Shown piece by piece: positions 13,210 through 55,455 of a stretch of 64,000 bases of DNA. The notes below the pieces were generated by a model. That model did not search any database, was not told where the DNA came from, and saw only the letters and a list, made by a program, of their open reading frames with translations. The position numbers and the translations under genes are program-made. How positions within the stretch are numbered: the stretch's first letter is position 1; the number at the start of each line of letters is the position of its first letter. Origin of the DNA: a virus (Duplodnaviria; Heunggongvirae; Uroviricota; Caudoviricetes); the IMG/VR virus record IMGVR_UViG_3300021387_001477, one strand, 5' to 3'.

Positions 13210-13464
13210 CCGTTTTGTTATCCTAGAAGTTTTTTTATCTCCTAGCTCTAGTAATTCATTTCTTACTAGTCCAGCATATATTTTCAACTCATATTTTCGA
13301 GTTGGTGGGCTCTCTTGGAAGGATTATATTTATTCACCTTCTATGCGTTACACTAGATTAAAGCCTCTCGCAATCTTTAACCTTAGCACGGGGTTTGGAT
13401 TCTCACCATTCACCGTTTTAGTCCACTTATCATCTATAATATCACTACTATAGACGGCATTTCT
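13210..13464 (-). mobile_element. family-B small group I intron (copy 2), 255 nt
   Basis: GTCTATAGTAGTGATATTATAGATGATAA...ACGGTGAATGGTGAG...GTAACGCATAGAAGGTGAATAAATATAATCCTTCC...GGATAACAAAACG; >80% identical to copies at 13485, 14242, 26113, 29352, 55218. Confidence 0.65.
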
Positions 13465-13484
13465 ACCTAAGAAGACAGTTTTGA
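13465..13484 (-). CDS. polA micro-exon (~20 nt, TCAAAACTGTCTTCTTAGGT) encoding core of polymerase motif B (KTVFLG ~ T7 AKTFIYG)
   Basis: Sits between two tandem family-B introns; with upstream exon gives RKRSF|KTVFLG; exact splice points uncertain. Confidence 0.45.
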
Positions 13485-13739
13485 CGTCTGTTATCCTATA
13501 GGCTTTTTATCCTATAGCTCTATTAGTTCATTTCCTAATAGTCCAGCATATATTTTCATCATTTCTTTTATGATGTCGAGCTCTCGTGGAAGGATTATAT
13601 TCTATTTATAGTTTCACCTTCTATGCGTTACGCTGCTATAGACTCTTTATTTCTATAGTTAGCACGGTATTAGGAATCTCACCCTTCACCGTTTTAGCTC
13701 GATTATCATCTATAGTATCACTACTATAGACGGCCCAAA
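13485..13739 (-). mobile_element. family-B small group I intron (copy 1), 255 nt
   Basis: Same conserved 5' GTCTATAGT..TATAG module, core and 3' GGATAACAGACG. Confidence 0.65.
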
Positions 13740-13740
13740 A

Positions 13741-13830
13741 TGACCTTTTTCTCCACATCTTCTTGTCTTTCTTGTCTAGTTTATCAAATTTATCGCCTAG
13801 ATAGAGCTTGGCGGTATATATATAACAATG
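13741..13830 (-). CDS. polA exon fragment (...TAKLYLGDKFDKLDKKDKKMWRKRS); 5' boundary unknown
   Basis: Open frame upstream of intron B1 ending in R-x-x-x-(F)K that completes motif B with the micro-exon. Confidence 0.35.
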
Positions 13831-13849
13831 TGTTCAGAGAGTGTCGTTA

Positions 13850-14143
13850 CTTCTCTCTGGTTCTCTTATGAACTCCTGTATATTTCTATACAGATCAGAC
13901 TATATCTTCACCTCAATACCGAGGGCTTACCGTTTCCACTACACGAACTTTGTAGTGTACTCTCTTTCGAGATAGTCGTTGGGGTTTTGATACAGAGCTA
14001 GTTAGTCATACTAGCCTTAATTTTATAAATATTTATCAAAACCTGCTGATTGGCCTTATTCTTTGATTTCTTACGGAAGTGACTAAATCTTCTCGTACCA
14101 AAGACTTAACGGGCGTTTCCAGCATTTAGTAAGTTTATTTTTC
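13850..14143 (-). mobile_element. group I intron (family C-like) in polA; boundaries approximate
   Basis: CAACGACTATCTCGAAAGAGAGTACAC ... GAAGATATAGTCTGATCTGTATAGAAATATACAGGAGTTCATAAGAGAACC tail (tail duplicated at 14530-14570). Confidence 0.45.
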
Positions 14144-14144
14144 T

Positions 14145-14241
14145 TGGGATCACTCCCAAGCGATACTTAAATCTAATATCTTCGCCTTTATTAAACTTAT
14201 CAATCAAGTCGGGATCTCCGCTTGCGAAACCTGCAGCTTTT
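14145..14241 (-). CDS. polA exon fragment between motifs A and B (KAAGFASGDPDLIDKFNKGEDIRFKYRLGV...)
   Basis: Follows G of intron B3; resembles Klenow LLTAFAEGKDIH region; ends at 20-nt hairpin repeat CTTGGGAGTGATCCCAAG. Confidence 0.4.
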
Positions 14242-14498
14242 CAGTTATGTTATCCTAAGAGCTTTTTATCTCTTAGTTCTATAGATTCTTATTTATATTC
14301 TCTATAGCTCGGCGTACATTTTTAACTATCGCTAGTTATCGGACACTCTTGGAGATACTATATTTATTCAATCTCTACGCTCTACATTACTAGAGTGCCT
14401 TTCGAAATCACTCTAGTTAACTCGGTATTTAGATTCACACTATTTACCGATTTTGCCCGATTATACTCTATAGTGTTTCCACTATAGACGGCATTTCT
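14242..14498 (-). mobile_element. family-B small group I intron (copy 3)
   Basis: GTCTATAGTGGAAACACTATAGAGTATAATCG...CGGTAAATAGTGTGAATC...GTAGAGCGTAGAGATTGAATAAATATAGTATCTCC...GGATAACATAACTG. Confidence 0.6.
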
Positions 14499-14509
14499 AC
14501 CTCTGCACT

Positions 14510-14741
<232 letters not shown>

Positions 14742-17423
14742 TTAGTTTTTCTTGGGATCACTCCCAAGTGACACCAATAATTTATTTTCAATGTCAAAAT
14801 AAGTTTCAATAAAGTCTTCATCTACTATATTCCCATTCTCGTCAATATGATATGGCGTTCGAACACAATCTTTAAAATCTGCATGACTAACCAAGACATG
14901 GAACGCACTAGACCACCTCTTTGAACTCTTTGTGTTGACCTCATAATGACAAAAGCATTTATGTACTGCTCCTGGCTCATTAGGGTCAGCTTCACGAATA
15001 GGAATATGTTTTTCGTCCTCAATTACCCACTTTCCCTCTTTCAGCATTCCATCAATATAGGTCGATAGAACCTTTGAATATTTTTTGAAGAGCAGATAAT
15101 TGATGACCATTTTTCTCATAAAATAGAATCTGTTATCAAAGTCAGATTCATTGAAGATCTTTCCATAATCTTCATATTGATCAGAAACATACTTAAAGAA
15201 CTGTTCCTGAGCGATATATCCATTAAAGTTACTCCACACCTCTTTTACCTGATCACATCCTAAGTCATTATAGAATTGATCAAACAGGACATATACTTTT
15301 TCTGGATAACTGGTTTGCCCTACTGGAGTTCCTTGATAAAGTTTTGTATAGTTCTCTCCAAAATGAGCAAATCCATCTTCAACTGTTTTTATACCGAGTT
15401 GTTCATAATATTTTTCTGCGCCTGGAAGTTGCTGCGCACTTTCAAACATTGCAGCGAGATATGCAGACTCGGTAGGATACAGTTGAGCAAATTCCAAACA
15501 GATCTCATCATTTTCAATGGGGGACTTACACTTAAAGAAGTTATCCGATACATAATCTGAATAACTAATTAAATCCCATTTTTGTCCAAATGCATAGATC
15601 TCTTGAGGAATGTTTTGTATGTCATTAAGTTGATTCTTTGAGACTTTCATTAACTCATTGAACGCTCTTTCATAATATAGATACTTCTCAAGCTCTATGT
15701 GTTTGTCATTTATCTTTATTTTATCTAGTCCGATTATAGGAATTAGTTTATCTCCCAAGACCTGTTGGATCTTCTTCTTTCCGCCAATTCCTGAATCAAT
15801 CTTAGACTTCAATACTTTCTGACCTGTTTTCTTATAGAGTTTTATCATTCCTACCTCTTCCATTGCTTCTCTTAGGACTTTCATAAAATTGGTAGCAAAG
15901 TCTGGACCATACTTCATTAATAATTGGCCCTCGTTTATACCAAGTTCATAAGCATCCATAGTATCAACATTAGAAGTCAGAAGATACTTAGCTATTTCAG
16001 CCGGATTTCCATTAAAGAAGGTATTATCATGCAGCAGTTTCTTGGCAATATCAGAATAATTATCTATATTTGCCATCTTTTTCTTGTGCTTATCCATCTT
16101 TATTTTACACCTAGCTTCACTACAAAACGTAATGCTCCACGCAATCATCTCTTTCGACTTCTTTTCATACTCCAATCTAAATGGCTCGTCAATATATAGG
16201 CCACAATTATGAAGTCTGGCGCCCAATCTTGCATTATCCATAAAGGTTCTAATACAATCTTCAGAGAATTTATCTTTCTCTACCAGATGTATCATAAGAG
16301 TATAGAAAGCGTCAAGATTACAATAATACCCTAATATTTCTGATGGAACACACATAAATGAACTCTTGTCCCAGTATTCAAGTATTAAAGCTTCAAATTC
16401 ATTTATATAACTTGGGTATCTTGCGCATATCTCAGCCCATTCCGGAGTTGTTTTAAAATCAGAGGGAGTAATTTTTAGAACTTTCTTCTTATCTTTCTTA
16501 AGTTTCCCTACTTCTTCATAAAACATGCTTTCAACAAGATCTGAGATTCTGTCAAACTCGGTATCCCAGACAGTAGCCTGAAGTATCATTTGGGCTGACC
16601 ACTTTAAGGAATATTTCTTTAAGTGATTTCCCTCAATGACATTATAAACAGACGCATCTATAAGATTATATAGGTCTACTCCAAACATTCTATGAGATAC
16701 GGCCTGTTCATATTGCATATTATAAGTTACAAGATGACTCTGCCTATGATTCAAAAAATCTCCAAATCTTTTACATATCATTCCGTATTGTTCAGGACTA
16801 CATGTATGTCTAAGATCTGTAAAACTTATAAATCCTCCGAAGTTTTTTGTACACAGTGATGCCCCAGATATATCAAACCATACATCCAAAGCCATACCAG
16901 ATGCCTCGAAGTCAAAGCCTAGGTCCTCAGTCTCTGGAAGATTACAAAGCCAGTCTAAAAATTTCATTGCTCCAGTAAAATCATGAATAACTTTACTTTG
17001 GAACCAGGAAAAATCAACGGGCTGTGTAAATCCTGGAGACATAAAATCTCTAATTATGTCTGGAGAAGGAGGATCTAGAACTACCTTAACAAAAGCTCCG
17101 CCCTCTATACTTAACCTTCGAAGTTTGGACACATCGAAGTAATTCTCTGACCTAACCCCAAAGTGATAGAACTGGTTTAGATATCGATAAGGTTCTGCCC
17201 CCACCAACATAACAGCATCACTTGGGCCTAATGTCAGAAACTCTCTTTTTGCATCATCGGACATAGATTCAATATTCTCAACCGTAAAGATCTGAGATGA
17301 ATCCAGCCCTATTCCATAATAATCCACCACGTAATTTGGTGTTTCTTTAGCTGAAATTAATACAAATCGTTTGTTCATAAATCTAAATATTAATATACCT
17401 TTGAGCCGATATCTTACATACAC
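14742..17423 (-). CDS. DNA polymerase A exon 1 (N-terminal region incl. 3'-5' exonuclease-like domain, no polymerase motifs A/B/C)
   Basis: 893-aa ORF; GFDFEASGMALDVWFD exo-like block; last codons overlap the 20-nt hairpin repeat so true 5' splice site may lie slightly upstream of the stop. Confidence 0.65.
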   Translation of the reverse strand: MYVRYRLKGILIFRFMNKRFVLISAKETPNYVVDYYGIGLDSSQIFTVENIESMSDDAKREFLTLGPSDAVMLVGAEPYRYLNQFYHFGVRSENYFDVSKLRRLSIEGGAFVKVVLDPPSPDIIRDFMSPGFTQPVDFSWFQSKVIHDFTGAMKFLDWLCNLPETEDLGFDFEASGMALDVWFDISGASLCTKNFGGFISFTDLRHTCSPEQYGMICKRFGDFLNHRQSHLVTYNMQYEQAVSHRMFGVDLYNLIDASVYNVIEGNHLKKYSLKWSAQMILQATVWDTEFDRISDLVESMFYEEVGKLKKDKKKVLKITPSDFKTTPEWAEICARYPSYINEFEALILEYWDKSSFMCVPSEILGYYCNLDAFYTLMIHLVEKDKFSEDCIRTFMDNARLGARLHNCGLYIDEPFRLEYEKKSKEMIAWSITFCSEARCKIKMDKHKKKMANIDNYSDIAKKLLHDNTFFNGNPAEIAKYLLTSNVDTMDAYELGINEGQLLMKYGPDFATNFMKVLREAMEEVGMIKLYKKTGQKVLKSKIDSGIGGKKKIQQVLGDKLIPIIGLDKIKINDKHIELEKYLYYERAFNELMKVSKNQLNDIQNIPQEIYAFGQKWDLISYSDYVSDNFFKCKSPIENDEICLEFAQLYPTESAYLAAMFESAQQLPGAEKYYEQLGIKTVEDGFAHFGENYTKLYQGTPVGQTSYPEKVYVLFDQFYNDLGCDQVKEVWSNFNGYIAQEQFFKYVSDQYEDYGKIFNESDFDNRFYFMRKMVINYLLFKKYSKVLSTYIDGMLKEGKWVIEDEKHIPIREADPNEPGAVHKCFCHYEVNTKSSKRWSSAFHVLVSHADFKDCVRTPYHIDENGNIVDEDFIETYFDIENKLLVSLGSDPKKN

Positions 17424-17472
17424 GGCTCAGATATAAGGAAAAGAGAATATTGGGGAAGCAAAATTCTTATAA

Positions 17473-17937
17473 TTGAATGATATGAAAATCAAAAGTGTAG
17501 TAGACGTAATTACAAACTCAAGTACAGAGGTTTTTATAATGAAACTTTCTGACTATAATGAAATGAAGGCTGAAATTGGAGAACTTGAGCCGAAGATTTC
17601 TAAATTTAATATATTTGAAACCATAAATGATGTTCTTGATTATTCCGAAAGATATAGCAGGCCAGATTTTGGTTTAATACCAGGGAAGTATGAATTATCG
17701 GACAGAACGAGAAAAATTTTAAAGGATTTTGGCCATTCTGAAGAAGAAATCGATAATTATATAAACAAGAAGCAGAAGGAAAAAAGAGAACTCCTAAAGG
17801 GTAATGAAAAATATAAAAATCTGGTTGGTACTGCAGCATTGGCATCTGATCATTGTGGAGGCTTAGGAAGAAACAGTCTCGTCGATAAATGGATGGAAGA
17901 ACACGGGAAAACTTATATAAGACGAGAATATGACTAA
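17473..17937 (+). CDS. hypothetical protein
   Basis: 154-aa ORF. Confidence 0.5.
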   Translation: MNDMKIKSVVDVITNSSTEVFIMKLSDYNEMKAEIGELEPKISKFNIFETINDVLDYSERYSRPDFGLIPGKYELSDRTRKILKDFGHSEEEIDNYINKKQKEKRELLKGNEKYKNLVGTAALASDHCGGLGRNSLVDKWMEEHGKTYIRREYD

Positions 17938-18355
17938 CGAAGAGCTTAAACGATATCCTAAAACTCATCAGGAAGGAGATATTGTCTATTTCGTAATTCT
18001 ACTCTATGACTCTTTCCGCCCGTACAAAAAGCCTGGAGGAATATTAGAGCTACATTATAAATCATCCGGTGATAGTGGAATGATAGTTTCTGAGGATGTA
18101 GGTTCATTGATAAAAGAAACTATCTCAGGAAATTTTATATGGTATGGCAGTAAGAACAAAATATCAAATATATCAAGTTTATTTGGGACTAAAGAAGAGG
18201 CACAGAAATATTTCGATAAACTTAAAAGACGATATAAAGGAGAAATTAAGAGGTACCGAACTAGAGCCTTAAATAAAATCAAAATGTTGGAGAAAGAAAT
18301 AGAATCATTAAAAAAGGAGATTAAAATTTGTGATGATATATTGAAATGTATATAG
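17930..18355 (+). CDS. hypothetical protein
   Basis: 141-aa ORF, overlapping start/stop with neighbours. Confidence 0.5.
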   Translation: MTNEELKRYPKTHQEGDIVYFVILLYDSFRPYKKPGGILELHYKSSGDSGMIVSEDVGSLIKETISGNFIWYGSKNKISNISSLFGTKEEAQKYFDKLKRRYKGEIKRYRTRALNKIKMLEKEIESLKKEIKICDDILKCI

Positions 18356-18834
18356 TTATTAATAATATTCCAATCAAGGACAGTAGTATTAAGGAAATTT
18401 CTAAGATACAGAAGCTTGACTCAAAACTATATAAGAATTTGGTACATAATCTTTTCAAGTATCCGAAATTTGATGTAGACAGATGGCGAGAGGGTCAAAA
18501 TTATGACTGTTATCAAAATGATGTTCTTAGGTATCTGGATAATTTGATAAAAGCTAATCCAGATTATGTTTATGGAAGCTGTACTGATGGGATACTTACA
18601 GTTCGGGGTATAGATATGACGTTACCAAATTTATACAATAGGCCAGAAACAGCATTCATAGATTCGATTCGGATTAATTGGAAAAATATGCCAGAATTAT
18701 ATTTTTATACTCTACAAACTGAATCAACCACTTTCTTATCTCAAATATATTTTTCAAAGGAAGAGGCAGAAAATAGTCAGGATAAATTATTAAATATATT
18801 AAATGATGGTGTCTTATTTAAAATTTTGCTCTAA
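18346..18834 (+). CDS. hypothetical protein
   Basis: 162-aa ORF. Confidence 0.5.
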   Translation: MYIVINNIPIKDSSIKEISKIQKLDSKLYKNLVHNLFKYPKFDVDRWREGQNYDCYQNDVLRYLDNLIKANPDYVYGSCTDGILTVRGIDMTLPNLYNRPETAFIDSIRINWKNMPELYFYTLQTESTTFLSQIYFSKEEAENSQDKLLNILNDGVLFKILL

Positions 18835-18848
18835 TTTTGACATCATTT

Positions 18849-18859
18849 CCTTATATATG
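18849..18859 (+). promoter_or_regulatory. conserved promoter core CCTTATATATG, 2 nt before ATG (leaderless-type)
   Basis: TTCCTTATATATGTTATGAAA. Confidence 0.5.
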
Positions 18860-18861
18860 TT

Positions 18862-19194
18862 ATGAAAGAAAAATATAAACCAAAAAAGCCTTGGGAGAGA
18901 TTACAGGATGGTGAAACATTCGTAAACTCTGAACCAGGGAATTCAATGACACCTATTCTAAAGAGTAGGCAGAGAGTAGTATTAGCCCCGACAACATGGG
19001 AAGACGTTGAAATAGGGGATATTGTTTATGCTAAAGTTGCTGGTAGACATTATACTCACAAAGTAACTGGCAAAAATGAGAAAAGAGGTGTCCAGATATC
19101 AAATAATCATGGACACGTAAATGGGTGGACTAAAAATGTCTACGGAAAAGTTATTAAAATCCTAGATGATGATGAAGTCTGGGAAGGGGAATAG
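18862..19194 (+). CDS. hypothetical protein
   Basis: 110-aa ORF. Confidence 0.5.
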   Translation: MKEKYKPKKPWERLQDGETFVNSEPGNSMTPILKSRQRVVLAPTTWEDVEIGDIVYAKVAGRHYTHKVTGKNEKRGVQISNNHGHVNGWTKNVYGKVIKILDDDEVWEGE

Positions 19195-19224
19195 AAACCC
19201 CATTATTTTTTAGCCCTTGAAATT

Positions 19225-19388
19225 CTTATATATGAAAAGGAAGAATTAAAATGCGCTTCGAAACATCTATTTTGGGCTAGTTGTGCTAAGACATGGCTCG
19301 AGCCCGTCCGCGCTGGCATTCTCGGGGTCCAGCAAAAATGTCGAAGTTTCTTCCTGGGAGAGGTCTATAAAGTGGCCTCTCCTTTTTT
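19225..19388 (+). ncRNA. candidate small RNA: promoter-to-terminator unit without ORF
   Basis: Promoter CTTATATATG at 19225-19234; GC-rich body GGCTCGAGCCCGTCCGCGCTGG...; terminator hairpin GGGAGAGGTCTATAAAGTGGCCTCTCC + TTTTTT; longest ORF 9 codons. Confidence 0.4.
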
Positions 19389-21870: not shown

Positions 21871-21927
21871 AGCATTTATAAGGGAAATAAATCCACCTGA
21901 AATCCTTATAGTTGACAGTAAATGTCT

Positions 21928-22225
21928 GGTCCATTAATTCAGTGGTTAGAATGGCTGACTCATGATTATTACGATTGTGTGCTTAGGAAGGAAACGCCTA
22001 AGTAGATTCCCCCAAATTCGGTGAAAGCTAAGGAGAAATCTATGCTAATACCGAGCCAAGCAGGTATATATAATAAATACTGGGCGTGTGTAGAGACTAG
22101 ATGGAGGAGGCCTAAGTAGAAATATATGGTCGTGGTATAGTCCAGTTCAGCAAACATGAAATTATGGCACGAAAGTGTAGTTGAAACGAATCAGTAAGTC
22201 GCAGGTTCAAATCCTGCATGGACCA
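21928..22225 (+). tRNA. tRNA-Met/Ile (CAU) interrupted by a 225-nt group I intron (21964..22188) between positions 36 and 37
   Basis: Exon1 GGTCCAT..GCTGA-CUCAU (ends in U); exon2 AA-TCAGT-AAGTC-GCAGGTTCAAATCCTGC-ATGGACC-A; intron ends in G. Confidence 0.7.
21964..22188 (+). mobile_element. group I intron (ORF-less) in tRNA-Met
   Basis: TTCGGTGAAAGCTAAGG...GCTAATACCGAGCCAAG...TGTAGAGACTAGATGGAGG (R element)...GGTATAGTCC (S element). Confidence 0.75.
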
Positions 22226-22296
22226 CAAATAAAAAATCTAATAGTCCGATAGCTAGAGATATCGTCTCTCGGACTATTTTCGAAACAATAACAGAC

Positions 22297-22596
22297 GGCC
22301 CGATAGTTCAGAGGATAGAACGACAGCCTTGAAGCGCTAAAAATGATATTAGCATTAGGAGTGCACTGAGGGAAACTTCAGATGTAGAACTCTTCAAATT
22401 CGGGGAAAGCGTAATAGCCAATCCCGAGCCAAGCCTAGAAAATCGTTCTAGGAAGGTGTAGAGACTAGACGGAGAGGGCCTAAAAGATTATTTGATAATC
22501 TCATGGTCAAGGGATAGTCCGAGATGAGAATTATTATTAATTATTCTCATTGAGCTAAGCTGTAAGTCCTGCGTTCGAATCGCAGTCGGGCCGCCA
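22297..22596 (+). tRNA. tRNA-Arg (UCU, inferred from splice rules) interrupted by a 224-nt group I intron (22331..22554); CCA encoded
   Basis: GGCCCGA-TA-GTTC-AGAGGATA-GAAC-G-ACAGC-CUU|intron|CUAA-GCTGT-AAGTC-CTGCG-TTCGAAT-CGCAG-TCGGGCC-G-CCA; anticodon assignment depends on exact junction. Confidence 0.6.
22331..22554 (+). mobile_element. group I intron (ORF-less) in tRNA-Arg
   Basis: GAGTGCACTGAGGGAAACTTCAGATGTAGAAC...TTCGGGGAAAGCG...CCCGAGCCAAGCC...GGTGTAGAGACTAGACGGAGAGGGCCTAA...GGGATAGTCCGAG. Confidence 0.75.
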
Positions 22597-22737
22597 ATAA
22601 AAACCATTTGGAGTTAACATTCAATAAGATTCGTAAAGAGTGAGAATGTGAATAGCAGAAAACGCTAGCTCCTCAACATAAAATTAACAAATCCAGATAT
22701 AGATCTTCTGCTTATACAGAATTCTAATCTGGACAGA

Positions 22738-22894: not shown

Positions 22895-24136
22895 ATGACA
22901 TTAGACGAGTTTAAAAATCTAAGCGATGAAGAACTAATTGGTCTATTTAAAGATTTTGGGTATAGTGCTAAGAATATAAACAACGCTTTTGGTTTTTCCA
23001 GAAATACAACGGAAAGGCTATTCAACAAAAGAGGAATTGATCGTAATAAACTAATAGAAGGCCACGATAATGAAGCAAAAGAAGAATATGAAAAGAATCC
23101 AAAGATTTGTAAATACTGTGGTAACCCAATGCCTTGGGAAAAGCGAAGAAATATGTATTGTAATAGTTCCTGCGCTGCTTCTGAAAACAATAAAGGAGTG
23201 GTCAGAAATGTGGAAGGAAATATTGTTAATCTTAAGAAAGCAAATCCTAATATAGGAAATGCAAAATATCCTGGGGAGCTAAGCGAAGCAAGAAGAAGAC
23301 AAGTCGAGCACAATAATATTATAAAGAATCATGAAGATTTAGATATTCCTGAAATAGGCTTGGGGTGTTGCTTTATTTGTGGACAAAAAGAGTGTTCTAG
23401 TGAATTTTGTAAAGAACATAACTTTAGCCAGCTTATTGGTTTATCGTATCGTTATGGACTAGATTCAAAATTAATAGGAACTGTTAATATATTTAATGAG
23501 TTTACAAGAATCAGAGAGTTAGTATATGACCTATATTGGAATCAGGGACTCTCAGGACGAGACTTGTCAGAACGATTTGGGGTTCCAGAATCTACTATAA
23601 TATCACAAGATTTTGATGTTTTAGATATTCCAAGACGATCAGCAGAAGAGTCAGTAAGAAACTCGCTACTTCAAGGAAAACGGCTTCCACCTCTAAACTC
23701 AAAGATTGGAATACAGGAATGGCATACTACTTGGACAGGAGAACGCGTATTCCTTAGAAGCTCTTATGAGACAGACTATGCAAATTGGCTTGATGAAAAC
23801 CAAATATCATATTCAGTTGAAGAGCTTAGAATAGAATATTATGATACTCAACAAAATAAAACTAGAATAGCTATACCAGACTTTTACTTATCCAGCACTA
23901 ATGAGATAGTTGAAATCAAATCAGATTTTACACTAGACATACAAGAAATGCTAGATAAGTTTAATGCATATAAAGAGAATGGCTATATTCCAAAATTAGT
24001 TCTTGAAGGAAAAGAGGTAGATATCTATAGAATTGAGGAAGAGATTGATGAAAAAAGAATTAATAAGATAAAAACAAAAAATATTAATTCATTCAGAAAC
24101 AATGGAAACTCAGATATAGATCGAGATAAGACTTAA
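22895..24136 (+). CDS. hypothetical nuclease-like protein: N-terminal HTH-like, Cys4 zinc ribbon, C-terminal putative PD-(D/E)xK motif
   Basis: CKYCGNPMPW...CNSSC; IPDFYL...EIVEIKSD pattern. Confidence 0.4.
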   Translation: MTLDEFKNLSDEELIGLFKDFGYSAKNINNAFGFSRNTTERLFNKRGIDRNKLIEGHDNEAKEEYEKNPKICKYCGNPMPWEKRRNMYCNSSCAASENNKGVVRNVEGNIVNLKKANPNIGNAKYPGELSEARRRQVEHNNIIKNHEDLDIPEIGLGCCFICGQKECSSEFCKEHNFSQLIGLSYRYGLDSKLIGTVNIFNEFTRIRELVYDLYWNQGLSGRDLSERFGVPESTIISQDFDVLDIPRRSAEESVRNSLLQGKRLPPLNSKIGIQEWHTTWTGERVFLRSSYETDYANWLDENQISYSVEELRIEYYDTQQNKTRIAIPDFYLSSTNEIVEIKSDFTLDIQEMLDKFNAYKENGYIPKLVLEGKEVDIYRIEEEIDEKRINKIKTKNINSFRNNGNSDIDRDKT

Positions 24137-25593: not shown

Positions 25594-25665
25594 GATCCAT
25601 TAGTTCAACGATAGAACAACTGTCCCTAAAACAGCACGTTGTCGGTTTGAATCCGACATGGATCA
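25594..25665 (+). tRNA. tRNA with anticodon CUA (amber-suppressor-like; anticodon loop CCCUAAA with C33 and a 27-43 mismatch)
   Basis: GATCCAT-TA-GTTC-AACGATA-GAAC-A-ACTGT-CCCUAAA-ACAGC-ACGTT-GTCGG-TTTGAAT-CCGAC-ATGGATC-A; otherwise canonical 72-nt cloverleaf. Confidence 0.5.
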
Positions 25666-25702
25666 CAAAGGACCTAAAATCCTTATAAAAGAAAATAAAT
25701 AA

Positions 25703-26057: not shown

Positions 26058-26390
26058 CGGGATGTAGCGCAGTTGGTAGCGCATGTGGTTTGGGACCACA
26101 GGGTCGCAGGTTTATTTTTACAATGGACGTCTATAGTGGAAACATTATAGAGAATAATTGGGCAAAAACGGTGAAGGCTGAGATTGCTAACGCCGTGCTA
26201 ACTAGATATATTGCGAAAGGATATCTAGCAGCGTAACGCATAGGAAGTGAATAAATATAATCTTCCCACGAGTGTCCAACAGCCACAGTAGATGTGGTTG
26301 AAAACGTATGCTGGACTAATACAAAATGAAGTATTAGAACATAGAGATAAAAAGCTTTATGGTTAACATTCGCGAGTCCTGTCATCCCGA
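26058..26390 (+). tRNA. tRNA-Pro (UGG) interrupted in the T-loop by a 260-nt family-B group I intron (26113..26372)
   Basis: Exon1 CGGGATG-TA-GCGC-AGTTGGTA-GCGC-A-TGTGG-UUUGGGA-CCACA-GGGTC-GCAGG-TT (ends U); exon2 CGAGT-CCTGT-CATCCCG-A restores T-loop TTCGAGT and acceptor; intron ends ...AACATTCG. Confidence 0.7.
26113..26372 (+). mobile_element. family-B small group I intron in tRNA-Pro T-loop
   Basis: GACGTCTATAGTGGAAACATTATAGAG...ACGGTGAAGGCTGAGATTGCTAACGCCGTGCTAACTAG...GCGTAACGCATAGGAAGTGAATAAATATAATCTTCC. Confidence 0.65.
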
Positions 26391-26411
26391 CTAAAAGAAA
26401 ATAGGTAGAAA

Positions 26412-28840: not shown

Positions 28841-28852
28841 TCCTTATACATG
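28841..28852 (+). promoter_or_regulatory. promoter variant TCCTTATACATG with TTTTTTTTATCCGTAAT upstream element, driving tRNA-Leu(UAA)
   Basis: 9 nt upstream of tRNA 5' end. Confidence 0.45.
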
Positions 28853-28900
28853 AAAATTGTAGACTCGGCTTGGTGGTGGAATGGTAGACACGAGGGACTT

Positions 28901-29319
28901 TAACGTTACTTAAAGGGAAATTATTTCCAACTTATTAAGTATAATTTGAGTGCACTGAAGGAAACTTTAGATGTAGAACCTCCCTAATTCGGTGAAAGCT
29001 AAGCGCAACGCTGCAAAACGCTCCCTGAAATACGGTTAGCGCCTATAGGATAAAGATGCGTATAAATTGCGTATGCTAATACCGAGCCAATGTTTAAAGA
29101 CAGTGTGTAGAGACGAGATACGGGAGGGACCTAAGTTGAAATTTATAAACGTAGTGGGTGGGAATTACCACGTTAAATCCAAAACCTGAGATAAAAGGCA
29201 TTTATAATCTTGCAAGATTTCAATATGGTTAAGATACAGTCCAGACCACAAACAGATTAAGAGCAGAACCAACCTGTATATCAAAGATTTAATCTGGTAG
29301 CGAAAGCTATAGTGGTAAG
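28901..29319 (+). mobile_element. group I intron at the classical tRNA-Leu(UAA) U34/A35 site
   Basis: GAGTGCACTGAAGGAAACTTTAGATGTAGAAC...TTCGGTGAAAGCTAAGC...ACCGAGCCAATG...GTGTAGAGACGAGATACGGGAGGGACCTAA...GATACAGTCC. Confidence 0.65.
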
Positions 29320-29351
29320 AAAATCCCTTGGGCAGAAGTGCCCGTGTGGGT

Positions 29352-29605: not shown

Positions 29606-29697
29606 GTCGAATCCCATCCGAGCTACAATATAGCCCTGAAATAGTAAAAACGCTATTTTCAGGGTTTCTTTTCCTTATTAATGAAAGGATATCAATT

Positions 29698-29708
29698 CCT
29701 TATATATG
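29698..29708 (+). promoter_or_regulatory. promoter core TTCCTTATATATG for tRNA-Leu(UAG)
   Basis: 4 nt upstream of tRNA start. Confidence 0.45.
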
Positions 29709-48878: not shown

Positions 48879-49330
48879 AAAACGTAAATTCAATACTTGA
48901 GGCTGGAAAGATCATTGACTCTCTGAAATCTGCCGAATTTGAGTCTTTGGTGGGGAATGAATTATCTTTATCCTTTGAAGACACTGAGGATAATATGAAG
49001 TTCCTAGAGAATTATGACGTAACCATGGAAGACTCAGATCCATTTCGCATCTTATCTTTTGACAATTTATCTACTTATATTTATGTTATGTGGCAAGGAT
49101 CTAGGAATAACTTAGATATCCCCGATCTTATTTCAATGTATGTAGAAAAATCAGAAGAAACTCCAGATATAAACAAGACATTACTTAGAATGATTCTTCG
49201 AGCCTATTATTCTGAAGATCTTGACGCTGCTATTGAAGATGTAAAAAGAAAAATAAAGAAATATCATGACGAAATAGGAAAGCTGGAAACCCTTACTAGT
49301 GTATCTGATTATTTATTTAGGAGGATATGA
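48845..49330 (+). CDS. hypothetical protein
   Basis: 161-aa ORF. Confidence 0.45.
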   Translation: MGYMSIRKATIKNVNSILEAGKIIDSLKSAEFESLVGNELSLSFEDTEDNMKFLENYDVTMEDSDPFRILSFDNLSTYIYVMWQGSRNNLDIPDLISMYVEKSEETPDINKTLLRMILRAYYSEDLDAAIEDVKRKIKKYHDEIGKLETLTSVSDYLFRRI

Positions 49331-49790
49331 TATGGATGATTTTAGTATACCAAAAGAAGCATCAAGATATGCAAGTGATGGAGGAGATGGCAGTGGTGGA
49401 AAACTTACAAAAGAGATTAGAAAGAAATTACATTCCGGAAGAAGAATCTTGAATAGTTCCCTTGGCCTATTTCAATCTGGCGACCTGGTTTATGTAAAGA
49501 ATAGAAAAGAACATGGAATTATTCTTGGTCAGATGCCAGGAAGTGATGAGGAAAAGTATTTAGTCCTTACAGTATGGAGAGAGGATCAAAAAGATGAAAA
49601 CCCTCTTGAATATAGGATTAGATATTGTTATCCAAAACAAATAGATCTCATTGAATCCTCCGGAGAAAATAGGGAACCGCTGTATAATGTATTGGAATAT
49701 TGTGAAAATCAATGTATATTCCATCCAAACTGTGATGAATCTTGCGTTTTAAAAAAGATATATGAAAAATTAAAGAGAGAAAAGGGGTAG
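49299..49790 (+). CDS. hypothetical protein
   Basis: 163-aa ORF. Confidence 0.45.
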   Translation: MYLIIYLGGYDMDDFSIPKEASRYASDGGDGSGGKLTKEIRKKLHSGRRILNSSLGLFQSGDLVYVKNRKEHGIILGQMPGSDEEKYLVLTVWREDQKDENPLEYRIRYCYPKQIDLIESSGENREPLYNVLEYCENQCIFHPNCDESCVLKKIYEKLKREKG

Positions 49791-49819
49791 AAATACTCCT
49801 TTCTTTTCTTATAGATGAT

Positions 49820-50473
49820 ATGAAAAGTACAGTATATGTAGAAAATCAGCCAAAGAAGTCGCTGATGTCTATAATAATAATTAATAAAAATATAATTTCA
49901 CAGGAAGAACACGACTCTATTTCAAAACTAGGAGAAATATCAGATCTATTCTTCATATTTGGGAAAAACTCTAAAGGCATTAATCCGGAAAAATTTACAT
50001 CTCTTTGTGAGGGTTGTGCATGGATTAAAGAAAATAATTTAGTGTCTGGATTCCTAACAGCCCACTCCTATTCCTCAAATATATTTCAATGTCATCTTGG
50101 GTATCTTCTTTCTGATATAAATGATCTGGGAAGAGATATAAATACTGATGAGATATTAAGAATTCACGCCTTAGGTAATACTCTTCCTATAGTGAGGATA
50201 GAAAGAAAAACGGCTGAAGAACTTAGGGAGATATATGAGGAGAAAAAGAGTCTGTGGAAAAGAGATACAAAAATTGGAAAATACTCAACCTATAAGACAG
50301 ATTCATGGACAATATTTTTCAGAAAACTCCCAGAATCTTGCTTAGATAAAGAGTGGGTTTCTACATTTTCTCCGGAAGACCCTAAATCATTCTATATCAA
50401 TTCCCTAAGAAGAAGCGGAATTGGAAATATAAACGAAACTTGTGATGAAAGCAAAGCAAAGGGGGAAGAATAA
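49820..50473 (+). CDS. hypothetical protein
   Basis: 217-aa ORF. Confidence 0.45.
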   Translation: MKSTVYVENQPKKSLMSIIIINKNIISQEEHDSISKLGEISDLFFIFGKNSKGINPEKFTSLCEGCAWIKENNLVSGFLTAHSYSSNIFQCHLGYLLSDINDLGRDINTDEILRIHALGNTLPIVRIERKTAEELREIYEEKKSLWKRDTKIGKYSTYKTDSWTIFFRKLPESCLDKEWVSTFSPEDPKSFYINSLRRSGIGNINETCDESKAKGEE

Positions 50474-50744
50474 TAAGTTCCCATATATAATCGAGGTTTG
50501 GAAAAAGGGAGATCCAGTTCCAGAATGGCTTTCCGACAGAGCAAAGGTAAGCAGTATAGATAATTCCGGGCAACCAAATATTCAAACCAATAATATCGTA
50601 GGCGGTAGTGGTTATGAAATTATTGGGTCTGATGGAAAAAGCCTCATAATAACCAAGAATATTGATGATTATGTATGTCTTGGAGATAAGGGAATATTTG
50701 CATTAACTAAAATTCAATTTGACTTAATGTATGATAGTATTTAA
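50442..50744 (+). CDS. hypothetical protein
   Basis: 100-aa ORF. Confidence 0.4.
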   Translation: MMKAKQRGKNNKFPYIIEVWKKGDPVPEWLSDRAKVSSIDNSGQPNIQTNNIVGGSGYEIIGSDGKSLIITKNIDDYVCLGDKGIFALTKIQFDLMYDSI

Positions 50745-50988
50745 GACAAAATTCATAATAGAAGAAATTTTACCACACCGGCCAAAAGTAGGAAAATGGA
50801 GTGAAATAAAGGAGGGAAGTCTGGTAAAATTACAGACAGTACTAGGAGATAGGGGATGGAACGGAATTAGGCCAGCAATGATTCTAGTGGAAATTACAGA
50901 CCCCGATGGAAATATTATGGGATTCGAAATATCTCAATCATTTCTTAGTAGATTTGAGAAATATTTTAAAATTAAGGGAGAGGATTAA
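50731..50988 (+). CDS. hypothetical protein
   Basis: 85-aa ORF. Confidence 0.4.
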   Translation: MIVFKTKFIIEEILPHRPKVGKWSEIKEGSLVKLQTVLGDRGWNGIRPAMILVEITDPDGNIMGFEISQSFLSRFEKYFKIKGED

Positions 50989-51750
50989 ATGTGCCTCTCC
51001 TTTTTTTTGCGGGCCCGATCTTACTAAAACCAAAGAGTAGAACAATAGAGAATTTATCTGGAACGAAACCGGGCTGAGCGTAAGCGAAGGCCTGGTTGAG
51101 TGGAGGAATAGAATAAAAGAAAATAGAAGAAAATAATAATCAATATTCTTTCTGGGAAAACGCGAAGCGTTTTTTAGTTGATGTGACCTGGAGTGAATTC
51201 AACGAACTGAATGAGGAGACGTAGTCGACGAATGAAGGAGTTGAAGAGAGGGAGGTTTGGGGTCACATCTTTATTTAATTAAAAGAAAAGAACTTCGCTT
51301 TCACTAACGTTCAAGCGAAGTCCCAAATAAAAAGAAAAAATTGAATAAAATATATTAAAGTAAATAAAGAAGAATTCTTTATTCGGAGCCGGCCGAAACG
51401 TTAGTGTAGGCCGGGTTCTGTTGTTTTTTTTTGTTTATGGTAAAATGTTTTATGAGGCTTTGTAGGATACAAAGCCTCCAGTTAAAATAATTATTTGGTA
51501 AAATTATTTTCTATAAATGTAGGATATTGACGAGCCCGGAAACGGAGCGATAGCGGAGTGGAGGGCGAGGAAATTTAACATTTTTTCCAGAATTATATAT
51601 ATTATAAGTCAGTCATTGATTTTCTTAATAAATGTTAACTTTTTGCGTTTATTTTAAACTGAAATTCTTATCTATGAACAAACGAGGGCTACGCTTTTCC
51701 AACTTATTTTTAGCCCTCGTGAAAATGTAAACTATAAAAAATATTATATT
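50989..51750. other. 760-bp noncoding, locally GC-richer region with long inverted repeats and repeated GAGCG..GAGTGGAGG blocks (candidate replication origin or structured ncRNA)
   Basis: No ORF on either strand; GATGTGACC...GGTCACATC long-range inverted repeat, hairpins GAGGCTTTGTAGGATACAAAGCCTC and GAGGGCTACGC..TAGCCCTCG. Confidence 0.4.
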
Positions 51751-53832
51751 ATGGAAGTTAATAAATTAGAGGAACTGATTGGGTTAAAAGATACCCAACA
51801 GAAAATGAATGTTATAGAAATTCCAGTTCCGAGAGATGTAAACTTTATCTCGGAGTGGAAGGACTATTCATATCCACAAGGCCATTGTATAGTAGATAAA
51901 ACTATATGTGGCTGTGGATATACAGAATTTTGCTTAAGAAATGACATACCTACGATTCTTCTCTCCCCTAGAAAAGCACTTCTTGAGAATAAAGAGAGAC
52001 AACATAATCGGCCTGATGAGAATGGCCAAATTCTTTATCCTGTCTATTATTTCAGGAATGAGAAAGAGGCCCTGGTAGATTTTGATAATTCTCTTGTTCC
52101 AGATAAAGGCGAAGAGAAAAACGTTACCTCTCTTAGTTTCACGGTTATAGATAAAAACGCTATGGCCATAAGTCAAGAAGAGAAGGCACAGTATCTCATG
52201 AATCTTAAGATGCAACTTTCAAACTATCTACAAACAACCCAAACAACACCAAAAATCCTAGTTACTTATGATTCTCTCCCACATGTCCTTGATGTAATTG
52301 GTGATAAGGTTGGAATGTTTTCTGTGGTTGTAGACGAGTTCCAGAGCCTGTTTTCAGATTCTGTATTTAAGCCTGATGTAGAAATGACAACCATAGATTA
52401 CCTTAAGGATCTTCCAAATGTTCTTTATCTCTCTGCTACTCCCATGATGGATAGATATCTTGGAATGATAGATTATTTCAAGTCTCTTCCAATGTATAAA
52501 TTGATCTGGGATAATTCTAGAACTGAGAATATACGAATTGATCGGAGGGTTGTTAAATCTATTATAACGGAATGCACAGATATAATTCAATCCTATAAAA
52601 ATGGTATATTTCCTGAGAAAGTAGTTAAGGGAAAGATATATAAATCTAAAGAGGCAGTATTCTTTGTCAATTCGGTAAAGACTATATGTGATCTTATTAG
52701 GAAAAATAAACTTAACCCTTCTGAGGTTAATATTCTTTGCTCTCACTCTCCGAAGAATTTACAACGAATAAAGAAGCTTGGAAAAGGATTCGATTATGGA
52801 ACAATACCGCTAAAGGGAGAATATCATAAAATGTTTACCTTTTGTACTAGGACAACTTATCTTGGTGCAGATTTTTATTCTACTAATGCTATAACAATTA
52901 TCTGTTCTGACATAAATATAGATACACTTAACCTTGATATTGCTTTAGATCTTCCTCAAATTGTAGGTAGACAAAGACTTCCTGAGAATGTGTTTAGAAA
53001 CGAGATCATTTATATCTTCAGAGGAGCTAATAAAGGAGCTCTTGTGATAACCAAAGATCAATTTTTAGACCATATGAAGGAGAAGATGGACAGAACCTCA
53101 GATCTATTATATATTTATGATACTTCAGAGGGTCGAGTTAGAGATAGTTATGTTTATACGATTCGAGAAAACACAGAAACACATAAATATAAAAGTAATT
53201 TCGTCGGAATTCAGGGAGGAAATGGGTTGACAGAGAATTACCTTGTTATCCTTTCTGAGTGTAGGGCATATGAAATATCTAGGCCGGAATATCAGGACAA
53301 AGTTATAATTAAGAAGGAGCTTGATGCTAATGATGGTTTTATATACTCCGATTCAAAGAGTGTTGCCCAGGAAATAAATGATCTTGAGGCAGAGTTTAGA
53401 AAGGATAATAATTTTGAGAGAAGAATGAGGCTACTATGTGATTTTATAGATCATCGGCCAGAAACATATAAACAATATTCTGGTTATATGTCTTCGTTTA
53501 TTCCAATTGAGTATCAGAATTATCTCGAACTTTTAAGTACTTCTGAAATCAGGGCTGTTTCTTACCGTGAAGTTAATCTTAAGGAAAAGGTGGAAACTTT
53601 AAAAACACAAGACAACAGAAAATTAATCATTGTAGATAAATTTCCTATTGGGTCTAGGTGGCTACTCTCAACTATAAAAAATATATTAAGAGACGTGTAC
53701 GCTAGTCTTAATATATCTAAGTCGCCAAAGGCTAGTGATATTACTGAGTATCTGGAGGTGAAGGATGTAATTATGAATGACCCTTCTACTAATAAGAAGG
53801 CTCGAGGTTATGAAATTTTAAAGGTAAAGTAA
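51751..53832 (+). CDS. SF2 helicase-like protein with C-terminal ~150-aa module duplicated in next gene
   Basis: VVDEFQSL (DExx), LYLSATPM (SAT); C-terminus NNFERRMRLLCDFID...SEIRAVSYREVNLK...GYEILKVK. Confidence 0.5.
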   Translation: MEVNKLEELIGLKDTQQKMNVIEIPVPRDVNFISEWKDYSYPQGHCIVDKTICGCGYTEFCLRNDIPTILLSPRKALLENKERQHNRPDENGQILYPVYYFRNEKEALVDFDNSLVPDKGEEKNVTSLSFTVIDKNAMAISQEEKAQYLMNLKMQLSNYLQTTQTTPKILVTYDSLPHVLDVIGDKVGMFSVVVDEFQSLFSDSVFKPDVEMTTIDYLKDLPNVLYLSATPMMDRYLGMIDYFKSLPMYKLIWDNSRTENIRIDRRVVKSIITECTDIIQSYKNGIFPEKVVKGKIYKSKEAVFFVNSVKTICDLIRKNKLNPSEVNILCSHSPKNLQRIKKLGKGFDYGTIPLKGEYHKMFTFCTRTTYLGADFYSTNAITIICSDINIDTLNLDIALDLPQIVGRQRLPENVFRNEIIYIFRGANKGALVITKDQFLDHMKEKMDRTSDLLYIYDTSEGRVRDSYVYTIRENTETHKYKSNFVGIQGGNGLTENYLVILSECRAYEISRPEYQDKVIIKKELDANDGFIYSDSKSVAQEINDLEAEFRKDNNFERRMRLLCDFIDHRPETYKQYSGYMSSFIPIEYQNYLELLSTSEIRAVSYREVNLKEKVETLKTQDNRKLIIVDKFPIGSRWLLSTIKNILRDVYASLNISKSPKASDITEYLEVKDVIMNDPSTNKKARGYEILKVK

Positions 53833-53835
53833 ATT

Positions 53836-54807
53836 ATGCTGTATCTATTAAGATCTTTTGGAAGGAAGAAATCTATATTAAAGGTCGGATATGCCAGTGA
53901 TATAGATAGGAGAGTGAATACTTATTTTACGTATGCTCCCTATACAGAACTTATTAATACAAAAGAAGGGGATTTTACGGATGAGACTATGCTACATATT
54001 TATCTTCATTATCTTGGTTTTGGAAAATTGGGTAATGAATGGTATGAAGATTGTCAAGAGGTTATAGACGTATTTAATTCAGACCTTAATGATGTTTTAA
54101 AGGAGGTCTGGGATAAAAGGGATTCTATATTTTCCTTGATAGATTTAGACCAAGTATGTAAAGCAGAGGTATATAGAAGAGCACTGGAAAGATATAAACC
54201 GGCGGATTTTATTCCGGTAGATAGATTTTCATACGATGCAGATTCAGACAAGATACTTCGAATAAATAAGACAGGAGAAGCTATTGATGAAGCCTATCAG
54301 TTGAGATTGGATCAAGAAACTCTATTAAATAACCAAAACTTAAATCAAGAGGTTTCGAGCCTATATTCAGAATATTCGATAGACAGTAATTTTGAGAGAA
54401 GGATGAGATTATTGTGTGATTTTATAGACAATAATTCTGAATTCTATAAAAGTAATATCGATACCATTTCTGTATTAATGTATAGGCAGGTTCAATTTGC
54501 TGAATCATTAAGTACTTCTGAAATTAGAGCAGTTTCTTATCGAGAGGTTAATCTTAAGAAGATAATAGAAGTGCAGAAGACACAGGATAACAGAAAATCA
54601 ATCATCGTAGGTAAATTTTCTGTTGGGTCTAGGTATTCTCTTTCGTCAATTAAAGATACCCTAAGGGAGTCATATGCGCAACTCGGAATACTTAAGTCGC
54701 CGAAGGCTAGTGATATCTTAGAATTTCTTGAAGTAAAGAAAGTAAAAATCATTGACCCTAGTACAAAGGAGAAGATAAATGGTTATGAAATTTTAAAAGT
54801 GAAGTAA
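53836..54807 (+). CDS. putative GIY-YIG/T5orf172-like N-terminal domain protein sharing C-terminal module with upstream helicase
   Basis: KSILKVGYASDIDRRVNTYF...; C-terminus SNFERRMRLLCDFID...SEIRAVSYREVNLK...GYEILKVK. Confidence 0.4.
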   Translation: MLYLLRSFGRKKSILKVGYASDIDRRVNTYFTYAPYTELINTKEGDFTDETMLHIYLHYLGFGKLGNEWYEDCQEVIDVFNSDLNDVLKEVWDKRDSIFSLIDLDQVCKAEVYRRALERYKPADFIPVDRFSYDADSDKILRINKTGEAIDEAYQLRLDQETLLNNQNLNQEVSSLYSEYSIDSNFERRMRLLCDFIDNNSEFYKSNIDTISVLMYRQVQFAESLSTSEIRAVSYREVNLKKIIEVQKTQDNRKSIIVGKFSVGSRYSLSSIKDTLRESYAQLGILKSPKASDILEFLEVKKVKIIDPSTKEKINGYEILKVK

Positions 54808-55217
54808 TGTTAAATATTTACGTAGATAAGAATATAGGGAAAATAGTTCTAAAGACAGATGATTCTTCTGCTAGGTACCTTCTTGAAAAAACAGAGAAGG
54901 AAACTAAATTTATACCAAGGCTTAGGAAGTATGGAACTATAACCAGAACAACTAAGATTTATGATAATACAAGAGTGAGGCCGGATAAGGATGGTGTATG
55001 GACGTTTTATCTTGGTCTTGGTTGGGCTGGATATCTTGCAAGTGTGTTTTTTAAGTTTATGACAAAGGCAGAATATGACCAACTTCTTCTTGATGCCGTC
55101 TATTCTGATAACGTAAGAACAGTACCATTTCCAAATTTGCGAGATTACCAAAATTCCGATGCTCTCCACCTTTTAAAATATAAAATTGGTCTATTCAGTT
55201 GTTATACAAGTTACGGT
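54807..55217 (+). CDS. SF2 DNA helicase exon 1 (Q-motif LRDYQ and first part of Walker A ...GLFSCYTSYG)
   Basis: Exon ends TACGGT (U); tracked ORF terminates 2 codons later at TGA inside intron. Confidence 0.65.
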
Positions 55218-55455
55218 AAATGATTTGCCGCATTATATAATGATACTTCGGGTAAAAACGGTGAAGGGTGAGATTCCTAATACCGTGCTAACTACTGTAA
55301 TTACGAAAGGTATAGTAGTAGTGTAGAGCATAGAGGTTGAATAAATATAATACCTCCAAGAGTATCCGACATAGAGATATGAAAATATATGCCGAACTAA
55401 TACGAAATGAAGTATTAGAACTATAGGATAAAAAGCTTATAGGATAACAAAATTG
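55218..55455 (+). mobile_element. family-B small group I intron splitting the helicase Walker A motif; begins AAATGA (in-frame stop)
   Basis: ACGGTGAAGGGTGAGATTCCTAATACCGTGCTAACTAC...GTGTAGAGCATAGAGGTTGAATAAATATAATACCTCC...GGATAACAAAATTG; join gives TSYG|KTELIA = GxxxxGKT. Confidence 0.65.

Follow-up and report, generated by a model that had tools for sequence, protein, structure and literature searches.

Group I introns of phages, tRNA genes and tmRNA genes

Phage group I introns of subgroup IA, such as those of T4 td, nrdB and nrdD, Twort orf142 and the SPO1 DNA polymerase gene, are a close structural counterpart of six small elements found in a 64,000-nt stretch of the Caudoviricetes record IMGVR_UViG_3300021387_001477 (hereafter the window, meaning the whole stretch analysed). 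The six elements have no open reading frame (ORF) and lie in a DNA polymerase gene (polA, three copies), a helicase gene (one copy) and the T-loops of two tRNA genes. They are very probably ORF-less group I introns of an IA-like lineage, long resident at their sites rather than the product of a recent burst. With phage IA introns they share the P1–P10 self-splicing architecture and an extra hairpin between P7 and P3′, and likewise hit conserved motifs of DNA-metabolism genes, occur several to a gene and vary in presence. They differ from them, in a comparison with the T4 and Twort introns by description only, in having no endonuclease in any copy, a P7 of GCAUA/UAUGC instead of GACUA/UAGUC, a single hairpin between P7 and P3′, an exon-side P1 of 3–4 bp and scores below the threshold of the Rfam group I model RF00028.

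Short group I introns are abundant in some large phages. Jug phages carry 18.5 of them per genome, of about 206 nt, and 37 of 76 were seen spliced in RNA reads (PMC12880540); a high density has also been described in crAss-like phages of the Zeta and Delta groups (PMC7886860). The window resembles both in its jumbo gut-phage context (a 317-kb contig), its many ORF-less introns in essential genes and its stand-alone HNH genes, and the family occurs in crAss-like terL and major capsid protein (MCP) genes. Jumbo gut phages are rich in small group I introns; the elements are ordinary in kind and leave this general picture unchanged. The two papers are without tRNA hosts, the P7 variant and micro-exons of 15–20 nt (PMC12880540; PMC7886860), and the main text on Jug phages never mentions tRNA (PMC12880540).

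The bacterial and plastid tRNA genes that carry group I introns are those for tRNA-Leu(UAA), fMet, Arg and Ile; the introns are mostly of subgroup IC3 and, in a 2026 survey covering 4,934 complete genomes of bacteria, occupied the anticodon loop only (PMC13011429). The tRNA copies of the window resemble these in their hosts and in mostly lacking an endonuclease, and the tRNA-Leu(UAA) gene described here also has an intron at U34|A35; the family copies, unlike the anticodon-loop introns, stand in the T-loop at 54|55 and 55|56. T-loop group I introns are known from bacterial tmRNA, in which 883 sequences fall into four subsites, one of them confined to Bacteroidia; they are mostly endonuclease-free, measure about 290 nt, and their T-loop positions have been argued to be pre-adapted through a U at position −1 (PMC11915505). 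The copies described here likewise lie inside the T-psi-C loop after a U, are endonuclease-free and have a P7.1 region, and differ in that their hosts are canonical phage tRNAs as called by ARAGORN and not bacterial tmRNA, a comparison again made by description only. In the literature searched, no group I intron was found in the T-loop of a true tRNA gene, all T-loop cases being tmRNA. The T-loop of a true tRNA gene therefore appears to be an unreported insertion site for group I introns.

Six copies of one intron family

A repeat scan of the window found blocks common to six stretches, and MAFFT alignments of these (A1–A3) have a mean column identity of 73–74% with long invariant runs. A covariance model, R1, was built from the six copies and a hand-derived structure. 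On the window it matches six places only, at 227–276 bits; the next match scores 32 bits and belongs to another kind of intron. The exact boundaries were taken from exon reconstruction.

14242..14498, minus strand: copy c1, 257 nt, in motif A of polA; R1 246.5 bits
13485..13742, minus strand: copy c2, 258 nt, in motif B of polA; R1 255.7 bits
13211..13464, minus strand: copy c3, 254 nt, in motif B of polA, 20 nt downstream of c2; R1 260.1 bits
26113..26372, plus strand: copy of 260 nt in the T-loop of tRNA-Pro(UGG); R1 272.2 bits
29352..29606, plus strand: copy of 255 nt in the T-loop of tRNA-Leu(UAA); R1 276.4 bits
55218..55455, plus strand: copy of 238 nt with a short P2, in the Walker A motif of the helicase gene; R1 227.5 bits

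An earlier note on this DNA, made from its letters and ORFs, had placed six homologous copies here, and both R1 and the MAFFT alignments agree with it, the ends lying within 1–3 nt. Its coordinates for c1 (14498..14242) stand. For c2 and c3 the places hold and one end of each has been corrected, the 5′ end of c2 from 13739 to 13742 (3 nt) and the 3′ end of c3 from 13210 to 13211 (1 nt). Position 13739 was rejected in favour of a site after GGU; intron-less homologues read ...MWRKRFKT..., and an empty c2 site in a related phage (contig L348) reads AAAGGT|TCAAAAC. As the note had it, none of the six copies can carry an ORF of any size: no intron-encoded endonuclease ORF was found in the copies (238–260 nt), and all listed matches of the family are at most 363 nt long and ORF-less.

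Structure and group I identity

The copies fold into the following elements, with the P3/P7 pseudoknot and P2–P9.1 present in every one.

P2: hairpin with a GNRA loop
P3, P4 and P5: helices in the fold, with no special feature listed
P6, P6a and P6b: GAAA loop
P7: GCAUA/UAUGC
P7.1: hairpin with a conserved UGAAUAAAUAUAAU loop
P8 and P9: helices in the fold, with no special feature listed
P9.1: GAUAAAAAGC loop
3′ tail: GAUAACA...

All four shared modules that had been picked out by eye find their place in this structure. The 5′ hairpin module GTCTATAGTGG..TATAGA is P2, for which the helicase copy has a shorter hairpin; AAACGGTGAA..CCGTGCTAAC is P4-P5-P4′-P6; GTAGAGCATAGA..GGTGAATAAATATAATCCTTCC comprises J6/7, the 5′ strand of P7 and P7.1; and GATAAAAAGC..GGATAACAAAATTG comprises L9.1, P9.1 and the 3′ tail. 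Between P7 and P3′ there is one covarying hairpin, P7.1 (99% paired), and no second one. This hairpin, together with P9.1, suggests an IA-like lineage, as read from the fold.

Covariation was assessed in alignment A6, which holds 111 family members taken from the matches listed. In A6, 95.2% of cells are paired, against 63% after shuffling and 32–44% with the partners slid. The compensatory base-pair conservation on which the earlier note let its proposal hang is overwhelming, with both sides changed together in 60 of 64 pairs over the 111 relatives. Although P7 had been left out of the model, it is 100% paired in A6, where GCAUA/UAUGC is replaced in a compensatory manner by GCGUA/UACGC (the form in c1); a few members have the canonical GACUA/UAGUC. 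The variant P7 that had been set against the GACUA/UAGUC of the window's other intron family is thus borne out. Its first pair is G-C in all 105 distinct sequences of the listed family, and we infer that this pair binds guanosine. The minimum free energy (MFE) fold of the tRNA-Leu copy, which depends on energy only and is independent of the model, reproduces P2–P9.1 (z = −5.2). RF00028 itself, which has a gathering threshold of 50 bits, aligns P1–P9 of c2 (28.7 bits, E = 1e-4) and c3 (20.7 bits) in register.

Host genes and ligated exons

The polA gene consists of eight exons and seven group I introns, four of which are canonical and three of which are family copies. The canonical introns, named A to D in gene order, form two sequence pairs, A/B and C/D.

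11913..17378, minus strand: polA, whole gene
17378..14791, 14513..14499 (15 nt), 14241..14176 and 13825..13743, minus strand: polA exons 1–4
13484..13465 (20 nt), 13210..12933, 12668..12563 and 12299..11913, minus strand: polA exons 5–8
14790..14514, 14175..13826, 12932..12669 and 12562..12300, minus strand: canonical group I introns of polA, RF00028 53–79 bits
54807..55217 and 55456..56550, plus strand: helicase exons

Without its seven introns, polA is one open frame of 1180 amino acids (aa), counted from the first Met. The C-terminal part of the product gives a match to Pfam DNA_pol_A (2e-29) and aligns to Taq polymerase with no gap at any junction. A protein search with exon 1 recovered three uninterrupted homologues (P0005, P0009 and P0011) of 1179–1180 aa, colinear and 74–77% identical; these intron-less proteins read ...YFDISSAEVKAAGFASGD...MWRKRFKTIFLGVLYGLGK...VVHDSNT..., which equals the predicted ligated polA sequence. 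The targets had been given as polA, the Walker A motif of a helicase and two tRNA T-loops, which holds, with all polA copies in motif B, which does not. Copies c2 and c3 do lie in motif B (RKR|FKTVFLG|VLYG), c2 following ...AGG T; c1 lies in motif A (DISSAEV|KAAG), between GAGGT and AAAAGC and inside the Val codon GT|A. Two micro-exons result, one of 15 nt in motif A and one of 20 nt in motif B.

The helicase copy splits the Walker A motif (...CYTSYG|KTELI...), and the frame is kept when 55217 is joined to 55456. Once spliced, the gene encodes a protein of 501 aa that matches PHROG 16, 'DNA helicase' (1.9e-12), over residues 66–280, a region that spans the junction. Neither spliced polA nor spliced helicase has an in-frame stop.

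Splice sites and proposed splicing

In all six copies the base before the 5′ splice site is U and the last intron base is G. Immediately 5′ of P2 lies a triplet that pairs with the three last bases of the exon, GCC with GGU in five copies and GAC with GUU in the tRNA-Pro copy, a covariation against the other five. Counting intron-side pairs too, P1 is 4–7 bp long and has a U.G wobble at the 5′ splice site; a GAAA loop caps it in c1 and c3. P10, in which the stretch just 5′ of the guide triplet meets the beginning of the 3′ exon, changes from copy to copy according to that exon.

c2: P10 of 6 bp (UCAAAA/UUUUGG)
tRNA-Leu copy: P10 of 4 bp (UCGA/UCGA)
c3 and helicase copy: P10 of 3 bp each
tRNA-Pro copy: P10 of 2 bp
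c1: P10 of 1 bp

In the proposed reaction, the last exon triplet (GGU, or GUU in tRNA-Pro) would pair with the guide (GCC or GAC) and set the U.G pair at the 5′ site, which an external guanosine would then attack. The bases 5′ of the guide would next pair with the start of the 3′ exon as P10, and the terminal intron G would enter the G-site in P7, at the invariant first G-C pair, for the exons to be ligated. From the fold, the splice-site pairings and the exact restoration of the exons, all of them observed, we infer catalysis itself.

Several points weigh against reading the six elements as self-splicing introns. The exon-side P1 of 3–4 bp is short for a group I intron, and the P10 of c1 is a single pair. 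All six copies fall below the RF00028 threshold, and four of them are not reported by that model even at E ≤ 10. For the nested helices of A6, whose alignment followed the model, the pairing percentages are inflated; this does not touch P7 or the MFE fold. No intron-less allele of either tRNA gene was found: the 24-mer of the tRNA-Pro 5′ exon had no match in IMG/VR; the 5′ half of tRNA-Leu recovered 41 generic phage tRNA-Leu genes, several with anticodon-loop introns and none with a family copy; and around homologues of the neighbouring 306-aa ORF in related phages synteny is lost, with neither tRNAs nor family copies. Splicing of the six copies is, moreover, a prediction from the sequence.

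T-loop insertions in tRNA genes

ARAGORN called neither the tRNA-Pro nor the tRNA-Leu gene on the unspliced window. The two genes, the other intron of tRNA-Leu, and two further interrupted tRNA genes are as follows.

26058..26112 and 26373..26391, plus strand: exons of tRNA-Pro(UGG), by ARAGORN on the spliced sequence
28867..28900, 29320..29351 and 29607..29626, plus strand: exons of tRNA-Leu(UAA), with two introns, by ARAGORN on the spliced sequence
28901..29319, plus strand: first intron of tRNA-Leu(UAA), 419 nt, of another family, at the classic U34|A35 anticodon site
21926-22226, plus strand: hidden tRNA-Met(CAU), with an anticodon-loop group I intron at about 21964..22188
22298-22606, plus strand: hidden tRNA, probably Arg(UCU), with an anticodon-loop group I intron at about 22331..22554

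The tRNA-Pro copy lies between U55 and C56 (GCAGGTT|CGAGTCC), and its removal leaves a 74-nt tRNA-Pro. The tRNA-Leu copy lies after U54 (54|55, with G as the last intron base; GTGGGT|...|TCGAATCC), and ARAGORN calls an 86-nt tRNA-Leu once both introns are removed. RF00028 gave no match to the 419-nt first intron even at E ≤ 10. Seven phage tRNA-Leu genes in IMG/VR (L121, L137, L139, L144, L153, L157 and L160) are interrupted at the same U34|A35 point. The introns of tRNA-Met and the probable tRNA-Arg score 48.3 and 49.7 bits, just under the Rfam threshold. In total, four tRNA genes of the window are missed by ARAGORN through introns, two of them through family T-loop copies. The tRNA cluster also includes a tRNA with a CUA anticodon (amber suppressor type, 'Pyl' in ARAGORN) at 25594-25666 on the plus strand.

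Further cases were sought with a pattern joining the 3′ end of the family to a T-loop, and three more genes were found, giving five cases in four contigs. In L210, a 262-kb IMG/VR contig, a tRNA-Leu-type gene has a 188-bit copy at the same T-loop site as tRNA-Leu of the window (...ATCGGT|...|TCGAGTCC). Two JGI metagenome contigs, L362 (392-631, minus strand) and L364 (2159-2405, minus strand), have copies of 153 and 140 bits at GGGT|TCGA in tRNAs with a UCA anticodon and a long variable arm, which are opal-suppressor or Sec-like. These tRNAs are called by ARAGORN only after in-silico splicing, and the L210 gene also needs its D-loop interruption removed. That gene (4597-5320) has three interruptions: in the D-loop, an intron of 285 nt whose 5′ module is GGU|...GCC and whose P7 is GGAUA/UAUCC; in the anticodon loop, an insertion that at about 80 nt is too small to be a group I intron; and in the T-loop, the family intron. 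Calls of a T-loop copy in tRNA-Arg of L165, L187 and L203 were rejected as artefacts, the tRNA being intact upstream.

T-loop use is rare, since a test of 87 family members from the first 80 listed IMG/VR loci placed none in a tRNA or tmRNA. A T-loop pattern run on 596 Gb genome contigs, seeking a link of the family to bacterial tmRNA or tRNA introns, gave at least 120 matches, almost all by chance, the pattern being too degenerate. The T-loop of almost every tRNA contains G52-G53-U54-U55. It is a fitting site for this family because that run supplies a GGU| or a GUU| target.

Distribution and age of the family

The earlier note had proposed a search for the element in other phage and metagenome contigs. 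A scan of IMG/VR with the J8/7-P7-J7/9 motif followed by R1 recovered more than 150 full-length ORF-less members in at least 120 loci, with up to five per contig. With blastn and R1, unannotated members were also found in deposited phages, namely crAss-like (in terL and MCP), Clostridioides, Staphylococcus and Leptolyngbya phages. In the cultured cyanophage Lbo-JY46 of Leptolyngbya (PP438436; L370, 1274-2223) the DNA polymerase gene is split, and a 206-bit member inside it runs into the end of a gene annotated as a LAGLIDADG endonuclease.

The six window copies are mutually 66.7–76.3% identical, and copies from unrelated IMG/VR contigs are 70–76% identical to them. Closer copies occur at the same polA sites of related jumbo phages (335–398-kb contigs), whose polA exon 1 is 76–78% identical in protein; taken as a whole, the polA relatives are on contigs of 335–408 kb.

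Window: polA introns A, c1, B, c2, c3, C and D
L344: c2 and c3 only, c2 88.8–90.3% and c3 84–86% identical to those of the window
L348: c3 only (90% identical); the empty c2 site equals the exact predicted junction
L346: A only; the c1 site is empty (GAGGT|TAAAGC)
P0005, P0009 and P0011: none

The presence of family introns at the polA sites thus differs among related genomes, and each polA site has its own intron lineage, gained or lost among related phages. The flanking polA exons are 75–91% identical in DNA, about equal to the orthologous introns. Because same-site orthologues are 85–90% identical, like the flanking exons, the paralogues predate the split of these phage lineages. In L346 (398 kb), intron A (7137-8010) has a 225-aa ORF with an N-terminal CxxC...CxxC, and its counterpart in the window is ORF-less.

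These relatives came from a protein search; a search of the IMG/VR loci with the spliced polA C-terminal region gave none. Searches of the phage collection with polA exon 1 (tblastn) and a 24-kb stretch of the window (megablast) gave no match, and there is no close relative of this genome among deposited phages.

Movement of the introns

Exon recognition is minimal, at 3–4 nt and usually GGU with GCC, which is compatible with reverse splicing and no proof of it. Among 101 distinct listed members, the guide is GCC in 49 and the exon triplet GGU in 28. A matching exon triplet ending in U, mostly GGU, lies 4–25 nt upstream in 56 of 85 members against 20 of 85 in a shifted control. Since GCC is common and matching triplets exceed the control, the lineage has held on to its guide and is found at sites matching it. 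Such sites are predicted by reverse splicing, and would equally be left by selection for splicing after any kind of insertion. Spread between phages would most likely take place at cognate sites, by recombination in mixed infections, perhaps aided by the free-standing endonucleases of these genomes, and the rare jumps to new sites would be limited to GGU (or GUU) places still able to splice.

A larger role for such endonucleases has been considered, in which the introns are passengers: free-standing homing endonucleases cut intron-less alleles and repair copies the intron in ('collaborative' or trans homing). This is possible, if on balance doubtful. HNH ORFs are present at 1818..2981, at 22895..24136 and, immediately adjoining the 3′ end of polA, at 10386..11894, and a weakly T5orf172-like ORF (53836..54807) abuts the helicase start. 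Given these genes, trans-acting homing at cognate sites is as possible as reverse splicing. Occupancy differs site by site among related phages, the 206-bit member of Lbo-JY46 adjoins a LAGLIDADG ORF within the DNA polymerase gene, and Jug phages have hundreds of stand-alone HNH genes alongside their small introns (PMC12880540). None of these endonucleases, however, has been linked to any of the six sites, several specificities would be called for by targets so unrelated, and the equal divergence of introns and exons leaves no recent sweep visible.

The earlier note itself had read the high identity between copies as recent intragenomic spread, with relaxed target specificity or transposition by reverse splicing; put together, this makes a recent burst of one intron. 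Some features fit: recognition is only GGU/GCC and the targets otherwise share nothing, no copy has an endonuclease gene, and the guide triplet is conserved across the family and not re-tuned per site. Copies c1 and c3 have the same 18-nt 5′ module (AGAAAUGCCGUCUAUAGU) and both follow an exon ending in AGGU, and the unadapted 1-bp P10 of c1 is what a jump guided by P1 only would leave, which is a hint. The premise of high identity does not hold, however, as the paralogues are 67–76% identical, no closer than copies from unrelated contigs and more distant than orthologues, and most helices have been rewritten by compensatory changes. Orthologues specific to their sites, at 85–90% in related phages, make the paralogues older than those lineages; in five copies the P10 segment is adapted to the 3′ exon of that copy; and a GGU bias is expected under any route, because only splicing-competent insertions survive. 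A recent burst is accordingly improbable.

That the elements do not splice at all, being dead insertions resembling miniature inverted-repeat transposable elements or non-splicing group I-like ribozymes in pseudogenes or genes expressed as fragments, would accord with the sub-threshold RF00028 scores and with a splicing call drawn from the DNA itself, and is nonetheless very improbable, given that every junction restores the exact frame or cloverleaf (the 15-nt and 20-nt micro-exons of invariant polymerase motifs included), that the guides are complementary to both exons, that strong purifying selection and covariation mark the catalytic core over more than 100 listed relatives, and that RNA reads span 37 of 76 predicted introns in related phages (PMC12880540).

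Other features of the window

About 15 group I introns occur in the 64-kb window if two in a topoisomerase II gene are counted. The large-subunit gene (ORF 3126..4799) appears to continue through these two introns at 1168-3120 on the minus strand; one lies at 1168..1434 (45 bits), and for the other, which encloses the HNH ORF 1818..2981, the 3′ part is at 1688..1920. The motif CCTTATATATG has 24 sites at no more than one mismatch against 2.4 expected (for example, 17428-17438, 28842-28852 and 29698-29708), and is probably a phage promoter element. Its usual place is upstream of a gene start, by a few to about 50 nt, as at polA and both tRNA-Leu genes. The site by the tRNA-Leu(UAA) gene, 28842..28852, is a promoter-like CCTTATACATG motif.

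Two pairs of neighbouring ORFs contain related segments. ORFs 51751..53832 and 53836..54807 are 74–75% identical at their C-terminal ends (53404-53832 vs 54382-54807). ORFs 57182..58615 and 58596..60038 share paralogous segments (57317-57499 vs 58752-58934) and hit the same PHROGs, whose function is unknown.

Implications

As ORF-less and apparently IA-like group I introns, the six elements belong to a lineage with a swapped P7 that is common in phages and escapes RF00028, and the alignment together with R1 could seed an Rfam model for it. The polA gene, with seven introns and exons of 15 and 20 nt, is a natural test bed for the order and accuracy of multiple self-splicing.

With the T-loop copies, the group I sites of true tRNA genes are no longer confined to the anticodon loop, and the match of the family's 3-nt guide to the near-universal G52-G53-U54 gives a simple reason for this site. 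Tentatively, and with the odds against it, the T-loop of ordinary tRNA genes might be a regular, overlooked landing site for a GGU-seeking, endonuclease-free lineage in large phages that spreads by reverse splicing into RNA at minimal GGU targets. If so, a share of phage tRNAs would be missing from annotations, which could include opal-suppressor-type tRNA(UCA) of the kind seen in L362 and L364, and this might explain why some recoded phages seem to have no suppressor tRNA. T-loop introns hide tRNAs from standard finders, which bears on tRNA counts and on the search for suppressors in recoded phages.

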